Origin: Candidatus Micrarchaeota archaeon
GTDB taxonomy: Archaea; Micrarchaeota; Micrarchaeia; Anstonellales; Bilamarchaeaceae
NCBI GenBank assembly: GCA_964588555.1
Contig: CAZPPT010000006.1
Span: forward strand, 12,092 to 76,091
Direction: 5' to 3'
Length of the DNA stretch: 64,000 bases
Shown: piece after piece, positions 2,207 to 62,111 of the stretch
Layout: each line of letters starts with the position of its first letter
Position numbering within the stretch: position 1 is the first letter of the stretch
Notes under the pieces: generated by a model
What the model was told of the DNA's origin: nothing
The model's input: only the letters and a program-made list of their open reading frames with translations
Databases searched by the model: none
Program-made: the position numbers and the translations under genes

Positions 2207-3178
2207 CTATATGAATTCCATTTGTCCGTGTGCCTCCATTAGTTTGCCATGCGTGATGCGCATTAGTTTTCTAAGCCTATGTGCACTGTATCTGGCCGCT
2301 TCGGGGACAAATTTTTGCCCGATCTCTTCTATCCCGTATCCCTGTTCCCGAAGTGCGGCCACTCTTACCTGCCATTCAATTACCCCACTTATCATGAGAA
2401 GCCGCTCAAAATCGGCGCGCAATTCCACACGCCGTATGTCTTCAGACGCTGCCATGATATGGCGTAGCCTTCGCATGTGCCGTTCAGCCCTTGCATCGAG
2501 TGACGCAACACCATATGCATTCTGCATGCATCGGGCTTCGTCATCAAGCTCCTTTCTTTGCAGCGCATAATCTTCTTCTGAAAATAACCTAAGTATCCGT
2601 ACTGCCTCCTTATTTCTAAATCCAAGCGTGGCGAGTTCGTCTACCGTGGGCTTTCGCTTGTGCGCTTCAAAGAATTTGATGATTGCCTCCTTTATGGCAT
2701 GCGTCATATATGTATGATGCGGGATGTGGAGTTTTGGTGCCATGGTTCGGAGGAGTCGCTGCATCTCACGTTGTATTGCAGGGATCGCGAAGGTGGAAAA
2801 CTGCGCTCCTTTTTCCGGCTTAAAATATTCCGCAGCGCGGATCAATGCAACCATGCCTGCATTTGCAAAGTCCTCAAACGTAATACCATACCGTGCCCCT
2901 CTTTGTTCAAAGCCATTTTGCCGTATTGTTGAGCTGACAAGGCGGGCGTTATGGAGTACTAACTGGTCCCGTGCGCGTTTCCCGTGCCGGATTGCGTTGC
3001 GAAGTTCGGTTATTTTTGCCGGGTCGGCTTCAGTACTCAGCTTCTTTTGCGCGCTTCGTGCTGCCTGTACTGCGTGTGCAAGCCGGATGCTCTCCGGGCC
3101 TTCAAGTGCATGGTATCTGTCGAGAATAGTTCCGATAGGATACGGGGAGATTTTATTTGCATTGGATTTTTTCCGCAT
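2207..3178 (-). CDS. Sigma-70 family RNA polymerase sigma factor homologue (paralogue 1; regions 1.2-2-3-4)
   Basis: Region 2: NAGMVALIRAAEYFKPEKGAQFSTFAIPAIQREMQRLL, which matches the consensus GNxGLxKAVEKFDxxRGxKFSTYAxWWIRQAI. Region 3-like KLHIPHH, compared with consensus IRIPVH. Diverged region 4 HTH GIEEIGQKFVPEAARYSAHRLRKL. Confidence 0.75.
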   Translation of the reverse strand: MRKKSNANKISPYPIGTILDRYHALEGPESIRLAHAVQAARSAQKKLSTEADPAKITELRNAIRHGKRARDQLVLHNARLVSSTIRQNGFEQRGARYGITFEDFANAGMVALIRAAEYFKPEKGAQFSTFAIPAIQREMQRLLRTMAPKLHIPHHTYMTHAIKEAIIKFFEAHKRKPTVDELATLGFRNKEAVRILRLFSEEDYALQRKELDDEARCMQNAYGVASLDARAERHMRRLRHIMAASEDIRRVELRADFERLLMISGVIEWQVRVAALREQGYGIEEIGQKFVPEAARYSAHRLRKLMRITHGKLMEAHGQMEFI

Positions 3179-3227: not shown

Positions 3228-4373
3228 CTATGCCGCCTTTCGTTTTCCCTTAAGCCATGTTTTATCCATTGCACGGGAGCCGTTCCTTTTAATGGCGTGG
3301 TTTCCTTCCTTAAGCAACTCGTCATCTATGCTCCCAATCATTTTTTCCTCCTTTAGTATATCAACAATGGTCTGCAGGTTCGTGCCGCTTACCTGCGAAA
3401 GCGTTTTATCGGAAATGGCGTGCAATCCCATTTGTGGCACCCCTGCCTCCAAAAGATACCTTCTTTTGTGCTCCAAGCTCCAAAATTCACGCCCTGGCTT
3501 TTTGCGGCCTGTTTTTTCCGCAAGCCTTTCAAGTATGCGGTCCTTCCGACTCTTGACCGCTTGCTTTGTTATTGTTCGTGAGAACAGTTTTCGGTCACCG
3601 GCGATCTCTTGGAGTTCAAAGCCGACCGCGCATCTTGCAAGTATCCCTTTCTCCTGGGCCGTGATGTCATCCCGCCTAAAAATCTCCATTAGTTCGATAT
3701 GCGCACCGATACGGTTATCCCCTGTTGGGTCACGGATCACTTCTTTTAATTGCATTGTTTCATCGCCTTCATATATCAATCCATCAATAGTTCCAAGCCC
3801 ATGGCTGTTTTTGAATTCTAGGTATAACGATTCCCATTTTTCTCGTTCTTTTCCATAATCATCGCTTAGCTTGCCAAGTATTTCCTTTGCCCGTTTGGTT
3901 TTGAGCCCGCGTTTTTCTATTTCTTGTTCAGTTGGTTTTCTTCCAAGCAGGTGCATCATTTCAAGTATGCGGTCAAGGATGGAGATGGCACTTCCAAGCG
4001 TGCGCGCTACTCTTACCTGCGGGCCTTGATAAGCAATCAGGTTTCGTACATTGTTTTGCATATTGATAAAACAAAATGCCCTTAGTTGCCCCTTATCAGG
4101 TTCAAATTCCTTGCATGCCTGCATGACCCCTTCTGCCGCTGCCTGCAGTATGTCTTCAGGCAGTAACCCACGTCGTTTTGCGCGGAAATATAGTTCTGAC
4201 CTTTTTATAAGGTGGACATACTGGAGGGCATGGAGCGTGAGTTTTTCACGGGCGGCAGGGTCATTTGTTTTTCCATATGCCCTCACTTCCTCATCAGTAA
4301 GCGGCAGGTAGTTTTTTGCATAATTGGAAGCCATGCGGCGCATGGGTGAACCTGATACTTTGTTACGTTTCAT
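3228..4373 (-). CDS. Sigma-70 family sigma factor homologue (paralogue 2)
   Basis: Region 2: AAAEGVMQACKEFEPDKGQLRAFCFINMQNNVRNLI. Region 4-like: ILARCAVGFELQEIAGDRKLFSRTITKQAVKSRKDRILERL. Sits in tandem with paralogue 1. Confidence 0.7.
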   Translation of the reverse strand: MKRNKVSGSPMRRMASNYAKNYLPLTDEEVRAYGKTNDPAAREKLTLHALQYVHLIKRSELYFRAKRRGLLPEDILQAAAEGVMQACKEFEPDKGQLRAFCFINMQNNVRNLIAYQGPQVRVARTLGSAISILDRILEMMHLLGRKPTEQEIEKRGLKTKRAKEILGKLSDDYGKEREKWESLYLEFKNSHGLGTIDGLIYEGDETMQLKEVIRDPTGDNRIGAHIELMEIFRRDDITAQEKGILARCAVGFELQEIAGDRKLFSRTITKQAVKSRKDRILERLAEKTGRKKPGREFWSLEHKRRYLLEAGVPQMGLHAISDKTLSQVSGTNLQTIVDILKEEKMIGSIDDELLKEGNHAIKRNGSRAMDKTWLKGKRKAA

Positions 4374-4795: not shown

Positions 4796-6748
4796 ATGTA
4801 CCACCTAACTGTTGCTTGTGGTACCATGCCAAAAAGACTAAAAAAACCCAAAAATTATTCCCATTCACCGCGTGAACATGTCGATGCCATCCTTAATTCC
4901 CATGCATTATTCGACCATAGGTTAAATTTTTTGTTCGCCGACATCGTACGGGAGGGCAGGCAGGCAAGACGCGTGTTGCAAGAACTTTCAGGCAACCTTC
5001 GTGAGCCGCTTGTTTCGAAGCTTGAAGAGGCGGCCCTGCATGGGGAGCGTGCAGCTGAGGCCATGATTCTTCATAACGTTGGACTTGTGGCCGGATTTAT
5101 TAAGAAATGTGTTTTTGGCAACCCTCGAATACGTCGTATAGCCAAGCGCAGCCATATCGAGTATGAGGACCTTGTGCCAATTGGGGTAGTCGGCCTCCAA
5201 AAGGCCGTTGAACGCTATGATCCTGAAAGGGACGTGCTTTTTTCCACCTATGCACGATACTGGGTCCGCCAAGCCATTTTTATGTACCTTGCTGATAATG
5301 GGTCGCACATCCGCGTTCCCCGGAGCTTAATCGGCCAGCTACGGAAGACCGAGAAGATTATCGCGTTTGTCGAAATGCATAGGAGAAAACCGACAAAGGA
5401 GGAATTAAATGCGGTGCTTGGCGAGGCAAGTGTCGAGGCCGAACAGATTCTTGATAGTTTTGATGATCATGACCTTGAACGTGTGAGGGATGATGTACGC
5501 AAGAAACGAAATGGGGTGACAGCAGCCGGCCAAATTTTGTCCTTGTCAATGCCCGTCGGTGAAAATGAAGGCCAGACCCTTGGCGACCTGCTTGCAAGCC
5601 AGGGTTCAGACCCAGAATCTTCATTGTTTAGGCGTGAGTTTGCCACTGCTGTCCTGGAAGCCGTTTCGTCATTATCCAAGCGCGATCAGGTCATTGTTGA
5701 AGGGAGGCTTTTTCATAAACGGGAACTCCGTGTAATTGGGGAAGACTTATGCGTTTCGGGCGAGAATGTGCGCCAGCTTGCATTTCTTGCGTTTCGGCGG
5801 CTGATTGAGCACATGCGCAGCTCTGCGATTGATTCGGGCTACGTGAGCGCCTTTATTTGTTATCTTACGCAGGAATCAGGTATCCTTAAGCAAACTGCCA
5901 AGTTTAAGGAAAAAATTGAATACCTGAAAAGTGAGCCTGACCTGCCTCATCGGCTTGCATTGGATGCAGGGTCAGGGCTTTACATGCTCCCGCCACTTTC
6001 ATTTCTACGTCAAATTATCCCTGAGTTGCGCACGGCGGGGATTCTTAATGGCCTGCATATTGACCTTCTTATACTTTTATATTCGCGGTACGCTACTGAA
6101 AAACAATCGTGCGCCGAAATCGCTTTACGTGAAAAAGAACGGCGCAGCCCAAAGGAAATGCCTGCAAGGCGTGTTTACGTTACCGCGGATAAGAAAATCA
6201 ACTATCTTGTTTCAGAAGGCTTTTCTAATGATACGGCCGCAGATCTTTTGGGGCTGGGCACATCCGTATCATTTGAGGCATTACAGTTTGCAATCCCTAG
6301 GCTAAAAGAAGCCGGGCTTGCCCCTTTTATTACTGAACGAATGCTCGTAAACGCGACCCGGCTCTATAAACGGGTTGGCACGGATGATGCAAAATGGGCG
6401 TACTGGCTCCACAAGCAGAGGAGAACTGCCGGACTTGCAACAGGGTCAGCGAGGAGGCCGCACGCACATAAGTCTTTAGGAGAGAAAATAGCATATCTTG
6501 AAGAACAGGGGATCGATCCACAGGGACTTTTAGAAGGCCGGCCAAACATCCGCTCCGTTCCCCTTACGTTCTTACGAGTGTTTATTCCCCTTCTTGCGCA
6601 AGCGCGCCGTCTTGAGGATATTTCAAGCCCGCTTTTGGTGGCGGCATACAAGGAATCAAGGAAACGCCGTTCGTCAGATGCGCTTTCTAAGTGGCTTAAG
6701 GGATATCATGAAAGAGGGGCATATTCATCCAAAACGCCAATCAGCTGA
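4796..6748 (+). CDS. Sigma-70 family sigma factor homologue (paralogue 3) with a ~320-aa C-terminal extension of unknown function
   Basis: Region 2: IGVVGLQKAVERYDPERDVLFSTYARYWVRQAIFMYL. Region 3 HIRVPRS. Region 4: RELRVIGEDLCVSGENVRQLAFLAFRRL. An alternative start is MPKRLKK at 4826. Confidence 0.75.
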   Translation: MYHLTVACGTMPKRLKKPKNYSHSPREHVDAILNSHALFDHRLNFLFADIVREGRQARRVLQELSGNLREPLVSKLEEAALHGERAAEAMILHNVGLVAGFIKKCVFGNPRIRRIAKRSHIEYEDLVPIGVVGLQKAVERYDPERDVLFSTYARYWVRQAIFMYLADNGSHIRVPRSLIGQLRKTEKIIAFVEMHRRKPTKEELNAVLGEASVEAEQILDSFDDHDLERVRDDVRKKRNGVTAAGQILSLSMPVGENEGQTLGDLLASQGSDPESSLFRREFATAVLEAVSSLSKRDQVIVEGRLFHKRELRVIGEDLCVSGENVRQLAFLAFRRLIEHMRSSAIDSGYVSAFICYLTQESGILKQTAKFKEKIEYLKSEPDLPHRLALDAGSGLYMLPPLSFLRQIIPELRTAGILNGLHIDLLILLYSRYATEKQSCAEIALREKERRSPKEMPARRVYVTADKKINYLVSEGFSNDTAADLLGLGTSVSFEALQFAIPRLKEAGLAPFITERMLVNATRLYKRVGTDDAKWAYWLHKQRRTAGLATGSARRPHAHKSLGEKIAYLEEQGIDPQGLLEGRPNIRSVPLTFLRVFIPLLAQARRLEDISSPLLVAAYKESRKRRSSDALSKWLKGYHERGAYSSKTPIS

Positions 6749-7070: not shown

Positions 7071-7781
7071 CTAATTTAGGTTAATTGTACCATTTGCAAT
7101 TAATATCAGGAGCCATCCAAGGACCACAAGCGTTATCCCTATCGCAAGCCGCATATGTGCGCGGGATGCGCTTTTCCATTTTGCAAGGTCCTGTACCTTG
7201 GTACCAAGCATGACTGCAACCAAAATTGCGATGAGCGGCGCAACAAAAATTATGTTATATAATATAAGAAGAAGGAATGCCGTAAAGTCAAAACTTTGCG
7301 AAAGCAAGAGGATAATCGCAAGGTATGGCCCGCCGGTGCATGGTAATTCAACGGCTGCGACAAACGCCCCAAGAAGGACAACTCCTGGCCCCGAGATATT
7401 CTCCATCATCTTTTTGATGTCCTTTGCCCGTTCCGGCGGTATTGCAAGCGAAAGCCCCTGCCCGTACCAGAAGAAATCCTTGATCTCGATGATGCCGCCT
7501 ATCACAATAACTGTTCCGACAATGATTGCTATGTATTCCGCAACCCATAACGGTATATACTGGAAAAATGCAATAAGCCCAAGCCCGGCAAGAAGATATG
7601 TAAAAAATATTGAAAATACATAGAGTGCCCCATACATGAGCATCTTTTTCTTTAGTTCTGAATTTGCAATCATAAGCGATACTAAAAGAATCATGACCCC
7701 AATTGCACAGGGGTTGATCGAATCAATAAGAGCAGTAACCACTACGGTCCCAATTTCAGGTAATCCGGTGCCAACGCTCAT
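7071..7781 (-). CDS. ccdA: CcdA/DsbD-family thiol-disulfide transporter (cytochrome c-type biogenesis protein-like)
   Basis: Polytopic membrane protein with the two conserved Cys in INPCA and LPCTGGPY. Confidence 0.75.
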   Translation of the reverse strand: MSVGTGLPEIGTVVVTALIDSINPCAIGVMILLVSLMIANSELKKKMLMYGALYVFSIFFTYLLAGLGLIAFFQYIPLWVAEYIAIIVGTVIVIGGIIEIKDFFWYGQGLSLAIPPERAKDIKKMMENISGPGVVLLGAFVAAVELPCTGGPYLAIILLLSQSFDFTAFLLLILYNIIFVAPLIAILVAVMLGTKVQDLAKWKSASRAHMRLAIGITLVVLGWLLILIANGTINLN

Positions 7782-8590
7782 TGTACTTCCCTCATTTCGC
7801 CCTTTTCTATCGCAATACGGTATGTTTCACAGATGCGGTCTGTCCTTTCCTTTTGGGGCGCAAATTCAATTATGATGCAGTCGCCGGGCGGTACGTCCAT
7901 GTAGGGTGCAGGTACGACGTCCTGCGGATCTGTCACCTTTCGTTGTTCATAAATAAAATCGGTCTTTTTTCCGGGTTCACCGTTGATCACGCGATACTGA
8001 AAGACCTGTATTATACCATTCTGGTTTCCGCACATTTCCCCGTCCTTCCAGGTTTGCAATCCGCCGTTCGTGGGCACCGTCAATTCCCCGCCCTCAAGCT
8101 TTCCGCCGATAAGTTCAAAGAAAACGGGGAGCGCGGCGTCTGTCCTTATTTCATGGACGACACCTTCAATATGGAGGCGCCTATCATTGTGTTCATGGTA
8201 TAACGGGCTTCCAACTTTGTTCTCAAGTCCCACGGGGTCGATGAGATTGACTTCTTCACTGCATGCCCATATCTCCAGGTCTGCATGCCAATGCACTGGC
8301 CCTCCTGTTTCTGAAACCATGTTGAGGTACACCGTTGTTGCTGCCATATAAAATGTTGCAACTGTTATTGGTGCAGCAATCACGATAAATAGTATCTTTT
8401 TGCCCGTTTCGCCTATCCGGTGCGTAATCATAAGTGCGATAACAATTGAAATTCCTGAGATCGCGGCCGCACCATATATGATGATTACCGGGTCAGGTAA
8501 GCCAAGCCGTTCCCACACTGAGAGTTTCGCTTCTGTTTCATGTGCAGCAGAAATTGCCATAAGTAAAAGGAAAACAAGTGCAATCCGCAT
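7778..8590 (-). CDS. Membrane-anchored His-rich extracytoplasmic protein, paralogue A (uncharacterised)
   Basis: N-terminal TM segments then HWHADLEIWACSEE...LYHEHNDRRLHIEG. Shares an HWH...H.H...FF.I.G core with 55679-56278. Overlaps the ccdA start by 4 nt (ATGA). Confidence 0.5.
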   Translation of the reverse strand: MRIALVFLLLMAISAAHETEAKLSVWERLGLPDPVIIIYGAAAISGISIVIALMITHRIGETGKKILFIVIAAPITVATFYMAATTVYLNMVSETGGPVHWHADLEIWACSEEVNLIDPVGLENKVGSPLYHEHNDRRLHIEGVVHEIRTDAALPVFFELIGGKLEGGELTVPTNGGLQTWKDGEMCGNQNGIIQVFQYRVINGEPGKKTDFIYEQRKVTDPQDVVPAPYMDVPPGDCIIIEFAPQKERTDRICETYRIAIEKGEMREVQ

Positions 8591-8668
8591 AACGAGTACT
8601 CGCCACTACTAATTAAATATATTTCTGTTACTATTTCTATTGTTTCATAAGCAATTAGCTTATGCCAT

Positions 8669-9020
8669 CGGGCCCATAGCTCAGTCCCGCCTTTTCAAAA
8701 AAGGCGGCCCAAAACCGTCTTGTTAGGGGCTGGGAGCAACTTGGTAGAGCGATGGACTCTTAGCTTTCGGAGAAATGCGCTTAACGAAAACGTTTTTGCC
8801 CGCCTTTTCCAAAAAGCGGAAATCCATGTGTCGAGAGTTCAAGTCTAGCCCTTTTCTTAAAAAGAAAAGGTCTAGTACCCCAAAAGAAACGGCTGTTTTC
8901 TATTTTGGGCACTTTTTAGAAACTGATGACGGACTTTTCTGTTTTTCGGGCTCGCCCTTTTTCCACATGAGAAAGGCGCAAGATTCTAAAAAGGGCGAAA
9001 GAACCAATCTCTCTGGGCCC
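8669..9020 (+). tRNA. tRNA-Lys(CUU) with three introns: D-loop (8685-8739), canonical 37/38 (8762-8820), and T-loop/T-stem (8844-9007)
   Basis: The four exons are GGGCCCATAGCTCAGT, TTGGTAGAGCGATGGACTCTTA, ATCCATGTGTCGAGAGTTCAAGT and CTCTCTGGGCCCG. They fold to a 7-bp acceptor, D stem GCTC/GAGC, anticodon stem ATGGA/TCCAT, loop CUCUUAA, T stem GAGAG/CTCTC, discriminator G and then TTTT. Confidence 0.7.
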
Positions 9021-9032
9021 GTTTTATCTTAT
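9021..9032 (+). terminator. Oligo-T terminator after tRNA-Lys
   Basis: TTTTATCTTATTTTTGTTTTATTTT run immediately 3' of the discriminator. Confidence 0.4.
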
Positions 9033-9072
9033 TTTTGTTTTATTTTATATAAAATTATGTTTTATAAACTGT

Positions 9073-10128
9073 TTGTTCCATATTATTTTCATGTCTACCT
9101 TACGTTCACGGCAGTATGACCTGGTATTTCATAACGGCATCATAACGCCTAAAAACCGCGTGCCATTTCGCCTGGCACGTATCCCAGTACACGGAAATCG
9201 CCTTGAAGAGAGCATACTGGTACACCCCCGTTATGTCCCCACGGGGACAAAACACGAAATTGTTCGGTTGCATGGTTTTTCCCTTGGCCGCGTGATATAC
9301 GTTATCCTCGATGAGCCAATTAAAATCGGTGAAAAAGAATATTTCTTCCTTAGCATAAAGGGTACTGGTGCTGATATTTCCCATACTACGAAAACAACTA
9401 GAAAACGACGGTTGCTCGCAATCGATCCTGGTAAACAGCCCTACACCCCTTCAGCTGAAGTCGTTTTTCCAATTACGCGCTCTGACTATTGGCAGCGTAT
9501 CTGGGGCGGCCTTGATCTGGAAGCGGCCCATCTTGAGTTTCAGAAAGCACAATTTTTAATTGATTGCGGGCTTCCATTTAGCCCGCATCTTTCGGTCAAT
9601 CCATTCCCGCGGGAAGTCAATAATGCCATTGCACAACAAAACGGACAGTCGCCCCTTTCAGACTACGCTGAGTCATTTGCCGAGCTTGTCCGCGCAGTTG
9701 CATGCCCCATCCGGCTTCAACCTCAGTTTTACCGTAACGTTTCGGATTTTGTTCGTAGGCCGTACTTATCTACTATTGCAGCGGCAGATGCACAATTTGT
9801 CAAGCTTGTCCTTCTGCTTGCTGCGGCCGGCACCCGCCTTGTTTATCATGGGGTTTTTTCACACAATCGTTACCTTGACGGCACATTTACTGATGCTGAG
9901 AACTTCCATCTTGAACCCTTGGTTGATAAACAAAAGGACACCCCTATCAGTTCGCTTATTTATGATACGTTCCAACTGCTATCCGATTGTTTGGATTATC
10001 AGGCTGCATGCTACTATGTCGTGCAGCTTTATCATCATCTGGATGTCATTTCTAGGCCGACGGATGAGGTAGGTGAACTGGTTTTAGGCCTTCGTAACGT
10101 TTATCGTTCGGTTGCACGGGAGACTTAA
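9073..10128 (+). CDS. Hypothetical protein
   Basis: 351-aa ORF with normal composition. No confident motif. Confidence 0.45.
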   Translation: MFHIIFMSTLRSRQYDLVFHNGIITPKNRVPFRLARIPVHGNRLEESILVHPRYVPTGTKHEIVRLHGFSLGRVIYVILDEPIKIGEKEYFFLSIKGTGADISHTTKTTRKRRLLAIDPGKQPYTPSAEVVFPITRSDYWQRIWGGLDLEAAHLEFQKAQFLIDCGLPFSPHLSVNPFPREVNNAIAQQNGQSPLSDYAESFAELVRAVACPIRLQPQFYRNVSDFVRRPYLSTIAAADAQFVKLVLLLAAAGTRLVYHGVFSHNRYLDGTFTDAENFHLEPLVDKQKDTPISSLIYDTFQLLSDCLDYQAACYYVVQLYHHLDVISRPTDEVGELVLGLRNVYRSVARET

Positions 10129-10600
10129 ACCTTGCGCAACTTATTGCCTTAAAAATACTAATATTTACTATATTTTTATAGCCCCGTCGTATAGTAAACT
10201 TTTTAGGAAAAAGTTTTGACAGCATGGCAAAAAAATGCTGTCAAATTTTGACGCGAATACGCGCCAAAGTTTAATCAAAAACTGGCTCGCTAAAAAGTTT
10301 CTACACTGGTCAAGTATGCGAGGTTCTGGTTCTATCTATGCCAGAATGGCTAAACCGTGCCAATTGCTTGTGGTTTGGCATAGCTAGAGGAGATCCCTTG
10401 TGACATCGGTTCGAAAGCCATTACTTTTGACTTTGAAAACCAAATGGCAAAAGTAAAGGCCTTGGTCAAAAGCCCTGCAGCTTTAACTATCCCAAAACGG
10501 GAAACTGGAAACGCAGGACTGACTTTTCCGGTCGGGGCTATATTTTTATTTATTCCCTTCCATAAGATGTAGTTTTATTTTTACTGCTTTTGGTGTACTC

Positions 10601-40396: not shown

Positions 40397-41716
40397 TTAC
40401 ATCCGTAGTCCAGGTATCTTGCCGCCCTTCATCATCTTTTCTAATTGAGCACGAAATCCGCGGTTGTTTTTATACATCTTTATCATTTTTTCCATTTTTT
40501 CAAACTGTGATAAAAATTCGCGTACCTCGTTTTCAGTTGTACCGCTTCCCTTCGCAATACGTGCTATACGTGTAGCGTTCTTTCGTATGATCGACGCATC
40601 CTTTCGCTCGCCGGGGGTCATGGAATTGATCATGGACTCAAATTTTTTCATCTTTTCTTCCCCTTGGTGAACCATCTCCTTTGGAACATCGGCTGCACCC
40701 AGCATGCCAAGTACGTTACCCAACGGGCCTAATTTCTTTGCCTGCTTAAGCTGGTCATAAAATGTTTGTACTGTAAACTCTTCCTGCTCCAGTCGCTTTG
40801 CATCTTCTTCTGTAATAATCGTCTTAACCTTTTCCATAAGCCCCGCAATATCAGGGACACCAAGTAACCTTCCAACGTATTTGTCCGCATGGTAAATCTC
40901 AAGGTCTTCAACTTTTTCGCCAACTCCGATGAATGCCGTTTTTGCATTTGTCGAAGCTACTGCACTAAGCGCCCCCCCTCCCTTGCCCGACCCGTCCATC
41001 TTGGTAATAATGACCCCGCTTATCCCGATTGCATTATTGAATTCCTGTGCCTGCTTTCCTGCCACCTGGCCGATATCCGCGCTTACGACAAGGAATGTTT
41101 CGTCTGGCTTAAGCACGTTATTTATTTCCTTTAATTCAGTTATGAGTGTCCCGTCAAACGCGCTTCGTCCAGCCGAATCGACAATAACGATGTCCTCGCG
41201 TGCATTCCTGAGTGCCTCATTTACAATTCGTGCTGCATTTTTCTCGCCCTTGATCGTAAAGAAATTTGCATTTACCTTTTTTGCAAGCTGTTCGAGTTGC
41301 TCCTGTGCCGCAGGCCGGTCGACATCCGCCCCGACAACAAGCACACTTAATCCCCGTGACTTGTAAAAGTGGGCAATTTTCCCCACACTGGTAGTTTTTC
41401 CACTTCCAAACAATCCGCATAACAAAATGTTGTGCTTACCGAGCCGCGGCTCATATCCTGTACCCATGAGTGCCACAAGCTCTTCGTATACTACCTTGAG
41501 CACGTGTTCCTTAAGGCTTAATGCCTCAAGCTTTTTTGTTTTAAGTGAGCGCTCTTCGATCCGTTTTGAGATTTCAAACACTAGCTTGACGTTGACATCG
41601 TTTGCAATAAGTACCCGTTGTAAATCCTTTATGAGCGCCTTTACCGCATCCTCATCGACATACGGTTTACCGGTAAGCTTTGAGAGCGCTTCGCGTAGTT
41701 TCTTGCCTAAATCCAT
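40397..41716 (-). CDS. srp54: Signal recognition particle protein SRP54
   Basis: N domain, G domain (GLFGSGKTTSVGK, DxAGR) and a Met-rich M domain at the C-terminus. Confidence 0.9.
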   Translation of the reverse strand: MDLGKKLREALSKLTGKPYVDEDAVKALIKDLQRVLIANDVNVKLVFEISKRIEERSLKTKKLEALSLKEHVLKVVYEELVALMGTGYEPRLGKHNILLCGLFGSGKTTSVGKIAHFYKSRGLSVLVVGADVDRPAAQEQLEQLAKKVNANFFTIKGEKNAARIVNEALRNAREDIVIVDSAGRSAFDGTLITELKEINNVLKPDETFLVVSADIGQVAGKQAQEFNNAIGISGVIITKMDGSGKGGGALSAVASTNAKTAFIGVGEKVEDLEIYHADKYVGRLLGVPDIAGLMEKVKTIITEEDAKRLEQEEFTVQTFYDQLKQAKKLGPLGNVLGMLGAADVPKEMVHQGEEKMKKFESMINSMTPGERKDASIIRKNATRIARIAKGSGTTENEVREFLSQFEKMEKMIKMYKNNRGFRAQLEKMMKGGKIPGLRM

Positions 41717-41760: not shown

Positions 41761-42031
41761 TGGACCTGGAGGGACAAACGCCGCACAATTAGCGAACCCG
41801 TTTTGGGCCGCCTTTTTTGAAAAGGCGGACTCGCACCCTCGGCCCCCTGAATTTGCGGTTTTCAGTTTCGCGTTCTTGGTTCTGAAAACGTGCGAATCAG
41901 GTGCTCTGCTGTTGCTCTGCGCAGTTAGCGACCCACTCTTGGGCCGCAATTGTTTTCGGATGAAAACAATGCGCATTGTCGGACACGACAATCGCGCCTT
42001 TTGGTAAAATGCGGAACTGAGCTACAGGCCC
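41761..42031 (-). tRNA. tRNA-Ala(CGC) with three introns (D-loop, 37/38, T-loop); G3:U70 present
   Basis: Minus-strand exons: GGGCCTGTAGCTCAGT ... GAGC A CCTGA TTCGCA [intron] TCAGG GGGCC GAGGG TGCGAGT [intron] CCCTC CAGGTCC A, then T7. The acceptor GGGCCTG/CAGGTCC gives the G3:U70 Ala identity pair. The exact D-loop splice is unresolved. Confidence 0.6.
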
Positions 42032-42100: not shown

Positions 42101-42221
42101 GCGACTGTAGTCTAGCAAACTTTTTGGAAAAGTTTGATCAAAACACTTCCTTCAAGTTTGGGCGTTGGTAGGATTCGAGATTGCCAATCTCGTGACCCGG
42201 GTTCGAACCCCGGCGGTCGCA
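42101..42221 (+). tRNA. tRNA-Gly(GCC) with a ~48-nt D-loop intron
   Basis: GCGACTG TA GTCT AGC[intron 42117-42164]TTGGTA GGAT T CGAGA TTGCCAA TCTCG TGAC CCGGG TTCGAAC CCCGG CGGTCGC A. Confidence 0.75.
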
Positions 42222-61901: not shown

Positions 61902-62111
61902 GAACGAAGTGAGCGCGGGGCATTGTTCAAGTTGAACAATCCAACCCGTGCGTCAAACTTTTCCTAAAAGTTTGATCAAAACGCTCTTTTTATCCAAAAC
62001 TGATTAGGTAAGGAAACTAACAGGTGTAGAGAAGAGTTTTAAACCTTATTCTATATACAATAGTATCGTATTCTAGTGAAAGTCTGATTATAATTTGTAA
62101 TCTATTTAGAG

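Follow-up and report, generated by a model that had tools for sequence, protein, structure and literature searches.

A tRNA-Lys(CUU) gene interrupted by three introns, two at non-canonical positions, in a Micrarchaeota-like archaeon

Within the window (the whole stretch of 64,000 nucleotides that was analysed), a tRNA-Lys(CUU) gene was located in which three insertions interrupt an otherwise canonical tRNA of 74 nt (Table 1). We consider it very probable (about 85%) that this gene is functional, that it yields a single precursor of ~350 nt, and that a broad-specificity endonuclease cuts out the insertions as three protein-spliced bulge-helix-bulge (BHB) introns, after which the exons are ligated. 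The three introns lie in one colinear gene at positions 15/16, 37/38 and 58/59, the first and last being non-canonical sites in the D-loop and T-loop. Exon-intron anatomy, orthology, covariation, BHB-compatible pairings and shared intron modules were observed directly in the compared sequences. The preliminary description of the locus had proposed a tRNA-Lys(CUU) split by three introns, including D-loop and T-loop insertions, and this held up: ARAGORN recognises the spliced form, and the orthologs have identical or compensated exons and variable introns. Its insertion lengths (55, 59 and ~164 nt) were exact, and its span of 8669-9020 identified the right locus, with coordinates that are corrected here.

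Structure of the tRNA-Lys gene

The spliced 74-mer was called tRNA-Lys(ctt) by ARAGORN, and the version spliced in the preliminary description was likewise called Lys(CUU). It has stems of 7, 4, 5 and 5 bp, a 7-nt anticodon loop with U33 and CUU, and G18G19 in the D-loop and U54, U55, C56 and A58 in the T-loop; CCA is not encoded. The unspliced locus received no ARAGORN call, either with or without the intron option, and the region 8500-9200 gave no tRNA-like Rfam match even at E<=10. The 3' exon completes both the T stem and the acceptor stem and is followed by a T-run, as had been described; the T-runs at 9022-9035 are likely the transcription terminator of the gene. Four T5 runs occur inside the gene (8793, 8913, 8942 and 8958, the last three within intron 3), and these could terminate archaeal RNA polymerase early. 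On the 5' side, direct sequence comparison showed an A/T-rich, TATA-like block to be conserved upstream of the orthologs L002, L060 and L062; judged from the sequence, this block may serve the divergent protein gene starting at 8590, not tRNA-Lys.

Table 1. Coordinates of the features described in the text. Positions are those of the window unless another contig is named; a slash within a bulge marks the cut.
Feature	Coordinates	Strand	Description
tRNA-Lys(CUU) gene	8670-9021	+	introns of 55, 59 and 164 nt
TATA-like block	8609-8628		A/T-rich, TAATTAAATATATTTCTGTT
Lys exon 1	8670-8684	+	acceptor 5' strand GGGCCCA, U8 A9, D-stem 5' strand GCUC, A14 G15
Lys intron 1	8685-8739	+	55 nt, position 15/16 (D-loop)
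Hairpin in Lys intron 1	8687-8707	+	perfect, 9 bp, CCGCCUUUU-CAA-AAAAGGCGG, then CCCAAAAC; module orientation B
Lys exon 2	8740-8762	+	remaining D-loop, D-stem 3' strand, anticodon stem 5' strand, C32 U33 CUU A37
Lys intron 2	8763-8821	+	59 nt, canonical position 37/38
Hairpin in Lys intron 2	8800-8819	+	stable, CCGCCUUUUCCAAAAAGCGG; abuts 3' splice-site bulge AA/A; competes with the BHB; module orientation A
Lys exon 3	8822-8842	+	A38, anticodon stem 3' strand, variable loop GUGUC, T-stem 5' strand GAGAG, U54-A58 (UUCAA)
Lys intron 3	8843-9006	+	164 nt, position 58/59 (T-loop), several hairpins
Lys exon 4	9007-9021	+	AUCUCUCUGGGCCCG: A59 U60, T-stem 3' strand CUCUC, acceptor 3' strand UGGGCCC, discriminator G73
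T-runs	9022-9035	+	UUUUAUCUUAUUUUU, directly after G73
tRNA-Gln(CUG) gene	10180-10540	+	introns of 112, 65 and 111 nt
Gln intron	10195-10306	+	112 nt, 15/16, 11-bp inner helix
Gln intron	10330-10394	+	65 nt, 37/38, strict BHB
Gln intron	~10415-10525	+	111 nt, near 58/59, junction approximate
tRNA-Phe(GAA) gene	37001-36881	-	47-nt intron at 37/38
tRNA-Ala(CGC) gene	42031-41761	-	G3:U70; introns of 105, 39 and 55 nt at 15/16, 37/38 and 58/59
tRNA-Gly(GCC) gene	42101-42221	+	D-loop intron of ~47-49 nt
tRNA-Leu(CAG) gene	61901-61518	-	introns of 69 nt (D-loop) and 229 nt (T-loop, 58/59; paralogous to Lys intron 3)
Hairpin module copies (...CTTTT-loop-AAAAG...)	8687-8715, 41800-41828, 42116-42143, 61953-61982		also in introns of L019, L012, L025, L060 and L064
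Divergent neighbour gene	7778-8590	-	protein-coding
SRP54 gene	40397-41716		
ORF overlapping the Lys gene	8775-9119		114 codons
ORF with sigma-70 region 2 match	2207-3178	-	
ORF with sigma-70 region 2 match	3228-4373	-	match below the Pfam cut-off
ORF with sigma-70 region 2 match	4796-6748	+	also sub-threshold matches to sigma-70 regions 3 and 4
L064 tRNA-Phe(GAA)	3587-3833 of L064	+	3 introns: 30/31 38 nt, 37/38 54 nt, 58/59 82 nt
L063 tRNA-Phe(GAA)	2297-2493 of L063 (reverse-complement positions)	-	2 introns: 30/31 37 nt, 58/59 86 nt

Other identities were considered for the inserted sequences. At a permissive Rfam threshold the introns matched no known RNA family. A self-splicing group I intron, whose catalytic core takes up roughly 100 nt or more, was rejected, as there was no such Rfam match at the gathering threshold in the window or, in 8500-9200, at E<=10; in a published survey table, every group I intron listed for archaea is in an rRNA gene (PMC6125680). 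A C/D-box RNA in intron 3 was also rejected on reading the sequence, which has a single UGAUGA, only an overlapping CUGA, and no second box pair.

Over the first two introns and the initial 48 nt of the third, an independent Logan assembly was 100% identical to the window. The Logan contig (SRR5011273_65647, L001) ends at window position 8890, inside intron 3, at a 32-nt stretch (8861-8892) that is repeated in the tRNA-Leu intron, and exact intron repeats may break short-read assemblies at these tRNA genes.

Exon-intron junctions

A BHB motif has two 3-nt bulges, cut between the second and third bulge base, and a 4-bp helix between the bulges. In this central helix the four exon bases 5' of the 5' bulge pair with the four intron bases 5' of the 3' bulge. 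At intron 1, four Watson-Crick pairs join GCUC 8679-8682 (the D-stem 5' strand) to the intronic GAGC 8734-8737, with bulges AG/U and AA/C and short flanking helices of 1 and 2 bp. At intron 3, GUUC 8837-8840 forms four Watson-Crick pairs with GAAC 9001-9004, the bulges are AA/G and CA/A, and the outer helix has 4 bp. Introns 1 and 3 have the strict BHB form (hBHBh', with helices on either side of the two bulges and their 4-bp helix; relaxed forms are HBh' and hBH). Intron 2 offers at best a relaxed motif: CUCU/GCGG, its central helix, pairs at three of four positions, two of them G.U, and the outer helix is the 5-bp anticodon stem. A consensus fold of six orthologous 37/38 introns led to a shifted 3-bp helix. 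BHB folding at the junctions, to which the preliminary description had looked for confirmation, was compatible with the motif at introns 1 and 3 and gave at best a relaxed form at intron 2.

The junctions were fixed by BHB geometry together with the orthologs, BHB scoring by itself not being discriminating here. A strict scan of 8660-9030 (full 4-bp helix, flanks of at least 2 bp) returned 45 matches, mostly chance pairs of A/T-rich hairpins, and overlooked the junctions of introns 1 and 3, since each has one short flank. With the junctions adopted, the D-loop reads AGCUUGGUA and the T-loop UUCAAAU, and L016, the ortholog without introns, has exactly these two loops. The positions first proposed were ~16/17, 37/38 and ~60/61; the second stood, and the other two were 1-2 nt off, giving the D-loop AGUCUUGGUA and the T-loop UUCAAGU, neither of which matches any ortholog.

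When the whole precursor and mini-substrates were folded without constraints, the acceptor stem formed. In these folds the Gln 37/38 intron alone showed a near-textbook BHB, and the Ala D-loop intron formed the GCUC/GAGC central helix; for Lys intron 1 a continuous helix across the 5' site was preferred.

Comparison with orthologous genes

Orthologs of the tRNA-Lys gene were found in other Micrarchaeota genomes with an exon-3 pattern and homologs of the neighbouring gene. L016 has no intron; L012, L019 and L025 have one, at 37/38 and homologous to intron 2 of the window; and L023 has two, in the D-loop and at 37/38. Two introns are also present in L002 (the same record as L013) and L062, at 22/23 and 58/59, the latter (39 nt in L002) with the GUUC/GAAC helix of intron 3 of the window. 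Three introns were found in L060 (GCA_023247345.1), of 51 nt in the D-loop, 48 nt at 37/38 and 42 nt at 58/59, where the 58/59 intron is without the GUUC/GAAC helix. Intron 2 of the window is homologous to the 37/38 introns of L012, L019, L023, L025 and L060. The spliced forms of L002, L023 and L060, which were the forms tested, pass ARAGORN, and in both L002 and L060 the tRNA-Lys gene adjoins a homolog of the same neighbouring gene as in the window.

The mature tRNA of the window has a mean column identity of 96% in comparison with L002, L060 and L016. All 21 pairs of the cloverleaf are kept in each of the four distinct aligned mature sequences, and four pairs have changed on both sides. Two of these changes, A7:U66 and A50:U64, are specific to the window and tie the distant exon 4 to exons 1 and 3; A7 is the sole difference of exon 1 from the orthologs and is compensated by U66. 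The preliminary description had stressed the completed stems. The pairing was confirmed, but the acceptor stem and T-stem alone are insufficient, since a loose scan with these two stems gave ~90 chance matches in the window. Chance was ruled out because all 21 pairs are kept and pairs have changed on both sides in the orthologs.

A second scan of metagenomes, with an exon-3 pattern, retrieved bacterial tRNAs, one chance match and the already known L002 sequence, and a 24-nt piece of intron 3 had no exact match in metagenome and viral contigs. Downstream of tRNA-Lys in L019 (~3772-3990), L023 (~3703-3900) and L025 (minus strand), one to three units of ~70 nt were observed, each ending in a copy of the tRNA 3' end (...GCCCCAGGCCCG) and foldable into a long stem. 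These units may be att-like duplications from integrated elements, or tRNA-like minihelices.

Further tRNA genes

By following exact matches to the Lys introns, other tRNA genes were located in the window (Table 1). All six window genes are interrupted, by 13 introns in total, each spliced form passes ARAGORN, and T-runs follow each gene. Three of the six (Lys, Gln and Ala) have three introns, at the same three sites, and share the 5' bulge AG/U at 15/16. Intron length ranges from 39 to 229 nt, with five of the 13 exceeding 100 nt. Default ARAGORN detected none of the six genes, and with the intron option only one, tRNA-Phe, which was miscalled as Leu(GAG); Rfam found only the 3' part of tRNA-Gly (42162-42221).

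The 229-nt intron of tRNA-Leu has the GUUC/GAAC helix at the same position as Lys intron 3. The preliminary description had considered a T-loop intron of 164 nt unusual. This is so in comparison with the <100 nt given for archaeal tRNA introns in a review (PMC4033280) and with the 39-86 nt of T-loop introns in relatives; the intron is, however, not unique in the window, the longer one of tRNA-Leu occupying the same position.

Two of the genes had further peculiarities. In its spliced form, tRNA-Ala shows two odd loops: the D-loop AGCAGCA lacks G18G19, and the T-loop UGCGAGU has G at position 55. Degeneration of the gene, additional processing or co-variation of the elbow may lie behind this. 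For the same gene, a reading with two D-loop introns and a micro-exon, worked out by hand, was rejected for want of a BHB. The 5' acceptor sequence of tRNA-Leu, GCACGGGT, is duplicated 50 nt upstream (61951-61944); an intron reading of the duplicated GCACGGGU upstream of tRNA-Leu, again tried by hand, was rejected on the same ground.

Gene order around SRP54 is not conserved, and no ortholog of tRNA-Ala or tRNA-Gly was recovered. In relatives whose SRP54 protein is 80-83% identical, the SRP54 loci contain tRNA-Phe genes whose intron number ranges from one to three; the T-loop introns there measure 82-86 nt. The genes of L063 and L064 (SRP54 80-82% identical for both) are listed in Table 1, and their long T-loop intron is conserved between the two. 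Genes with several introns are thus widespread in the related genomes sampled, and among the genomes compared this one alone has the very long introns.

Sequence relationships among the introns

Nucleotides 3-31 of Lys intron 1 are identical to positions 41800-41828 of the Ala T-loop intron (29/29 nt). Both introns are 55 nt long; their 3' parts, by which each pairs with its own exon, differ. A paralogous pair at one position is formed by Lys intron 3 and the T-loop intron of Leu, which have a 32-nt exact match and extended homology. On sequence comparison, the tRNA introns of this genome appear as sequence families that have spread among tRNA genes.

A hairpin module is also shared among introns. 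In seven genomes the 37/38 introns of Lys and Phe have the form GTTTTGG-N-hairpin at their 3' end. The reverse complement, hairpin-CCAAAAC, occupies the 5' end of introns in the D-loop or T-loop of Lys, Ala and Gly. When reverse-complemented, Lys intron 1 aligns with the 37/38 intron of L019 over 32/39 nt, including flanks outside the palindrome. Outside introns, one copy of the module was seen 5' of tRNA-Leu and one in an intergenic spacer of L007 (6171-6200). The window contains 17 distinct perfect hairpins of at least 8 bp, and eight of them fall within the tRNA introns, which account for 2% of its length. We found no published description of a tRNA-intron module shared as its reverse complement.

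Two further repeats were observed. Several introns have a short tandem motif, (C/A)NGGAAAC, in their 3' parts (window 61830-61812, 10495-10511 and 41872-41859; also introns of L063 and L065), examples being ACGGGAAACGGGAAACTG in Leu and ACGGGAAACTGGAAACG in Gln. In L007 (5850-5970), two copies of a ~45-nt hairpin element (GTTTCATACAGACTTG...GATGTATGAAAC) stand between an ATP-cone gene and a ribosomal protein operon.

Source organism

The best named matches of the divergent neighbour gene were to Candidatus Micrarchaeota (56% identity), and SRP54 matched at up to 83% identity, the named proteins among its matches being nearly all from Micrarchaeota. Other window genes encode archaeal housekeeping proteins (AlaRS, HisRS, thermosome, Nop5 and an eRF1-family protein). 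From the archaeal gene set and the Micrarchaeota best matches, it follows that the window comes from a Micrarchaeota-like DPANN archaeon. The remark in the preliminary description that three-intron genes occur in 'a few small-genome archaea' was apt: by its SRP54 and the proteins next to the Lys gene, the window belongs to Micrarchaeota, the lineage of ARMAN-2. Among the ~50 window ORFs scanned against Pfam, none was an endonuclease, RtcB or other ligase gene. Three ORFs in this otherwise archaeal neighbourhood matched sigma-70 region 2, which is of bacterial type (Table 1).

Discussion

Transcription of the Lys gene as one unit, its cleavage and ligation, and the type of enzyme are what we infer from the anatomy and from knowledge of the phylum. 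One precursor of ~350 nt would be transcribed, ending at the T-runs. Pairing between exons and introns would then present the cleavage sites in 3-nt bulges 4 bp apart, in strict form at introns 1 and 3 and relaxed form at intron 2. A broad-specificity splicing endonuclease, for example of the epsilon2 type as in ARMAN-2, would cut at each pair of bulges; the four exons would then be sealed into the 74-nt tRNA by an RNA ligase, for instance RtcB. Points against this splicing model are the weak BHB of intron 2, with one mismatch and two G.U pairs, the short flanks of intron 1 and the continuous helix preferred across its 5' site in unconstrained folding, the four internal T5 runs, and the absence of an endonuclease or ligase gene among the ~50 window ORFs scanned.

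It is very unlikely that the gene is instead dead, a tRNA-Lys(CUU) inactivated by three insertions of a repetitive hairpin element and left unspliced and unused. The insertions do carry near-perfect palindromic hairpins that recur in the window, the module occurs in both orientations as expected of DNA-level insertion, and the internal T5 runs and weak intron 2 motif would suit such a gene. Nevertheless, all 21 stem pairs are intact, two of them through compensatory change in the window's own lineage, and excision at the BHB-defined sites restores exactly the loops of the intronless ortholog. Orthologous introns moreover persist across genomes in which the neighbouring protein is only 55% identical, and the six window tRNA genes, all interrupted and including Phe(GAA) and Gly(GCC), cannot all be dead.

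Expression in pieces is highly improbable as well. Under this explanation transcription would stop at the T5 runs in intron 3, and the 3' exon would be transcribed apart and joined in trans, as in split tRNAs. Three T5 runs do lie in that intron, the 164-nt spacer is longer than a usual cis intron (PMC4033280), and split tRNAs are found in a DPANN archaeon, Nanoarchaeum equitans (PMC4033280). Against it, the exons are colinear and ordered within 352 nt, no promoter-like element was seen before 9007 on reading the sequence, and the two termini of intron 3 pair both together and with exon sequence in the manner of a cis BHB intron; in L002 this site carries a cis intron of 39 nt that forms the same helix. 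As for a chance assembly of tRNA-like pieces or a small protein gene, the many matches of the loose stem scan and the overlapping 114-codon ORF give them next to no weight against the ortholog comparison, which refutes both: column identity between the exons and those of bona fide orthologs is 96%, compensatory changes are present, the locus adjoins the same neighbouring gene in L002 and L060, and the ORF has no Pfam match and crosses intron and exon alike.

The splicing model has its closest precedent in ARMAN-2 (Candidatus Micrarchaeum acidiphilum), in which 56% of tRNA genes are disrupted, one of them by two introns in a single T-loop (Fujishima et al. 2011, PMC3239211). Its epsilon2 endonuclease cleaves strict and relaxed motifs in vitro, the relaxed ones at 59/60 (PMC3239211), and is also treated in Hirata et al. 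2012 (PMC3488258). The window resembles ARMAN-2 in its phylum, in its canonical and non-canonical sites including the T-loop (53/54 and 59/60 in ARMAN-2), in its mixture of strict and relaxed BHB motifs, and in the large fraction of tRNA genes interrupted. It differs in that the two assayed ARMAN-2 substrates carry introns of 13 and 25 nt, compared with 39-229 nt here, and in that its recurrent sites are 15/16 and 58/59 and half of its tRNA genes (3/6) have three introns. Since heavily disrupted tRNA genes and a broad-specificity endonuclease have been described in this lineage before, the Lys gene joins a known kind. Beyond the Lys gene itself, the length of the introns, the intron load of the window and the presence of the module in both orientations stand out.

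Haloarchaeal tRNA-Trp has a long BHB intron at 37/38 that carries a C/D-box guide RNA. Like Lys intron 3, it is an archaeal protein-spliced tRNA intron of >100 nt; it differs in lying at 37/38 and encoding a known small RNA, whereas Lys intron 3 lies in the T-loop and matches no Rfam family. The published archaeal maximum is three introns per tRNA gene (PMC3239211, PMC8450103), and the highest cited density for a whole genome is 71 introns in 46 genes (PMC8450103), to be compared with 13 in six genes in the small sample of the window. Thermoproteales likewise have up to three introns per gene and similar introns in different tRNAs and positions, as far as Sugahara 2008 and Fujishima 2010 are summarised in a review (PMC4033280). 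Within that summary of Fujishima 2010, transposed intron families are recognised by such sharing, and the 29/29-nt match of Lys and Ala and the 32-nt match of Lys and Leu are of the same kind. The Thermoproteales differ in lineage and presumably in endonuclease type, and the window introns are longer and their module is also found reverse-complemented. The split and tri-split tRNAs of Nanoarchaeum equitans and Caldivirga maquilingensis (PMC4033280) have similar BHB-like junctions and the same enzymes, but their pieces lie at separate loci with their own promoters; a split or permuted Lys gene was rejected, its exons being in order on one strand within 352 nt.

The two orientations of the module raise the idea that the introns in this clade of Micrarchaeota go back to a small palindromic DNA module (CTTTT-loop-AAAAG with a GTTTTGG/CCAAAAC flank) that enters tRNA genes either way and is tolerated through its removal by a broad-specificity endonuclease, introns thus arising by DNA-level insertion and not reverse splicing, in a genome with the highest known intron load (~2 per gene, up to 229 nt). 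We hold this wider proposal to be doubtful; the independent events that speak for a DNA-level origin are few, and such an origin should be read as a lead and not yet as a result.

According to published work, DPANN genomes with incomplete tRNA sets point to undetected disrupted genes that need manual curation (PMC5829648). For annotation, the window displays the form of such genes, all six of which default ARAGORN missed. For enzymology, endonuclease specificity could be probed with the T-loop introns of 164 and 229 nt and with the weak 37/38 motifs. The graded series of zero, one, two and three introns in one orthologous gene, together with the shared intron families and the module present in both orientations, is material for studying how archaeal tRNA introns spread. 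If the DNA-module proposal is true, new archaeal tRNA introns would arise by insertion of DNA and not by reverse splicing of RNA.
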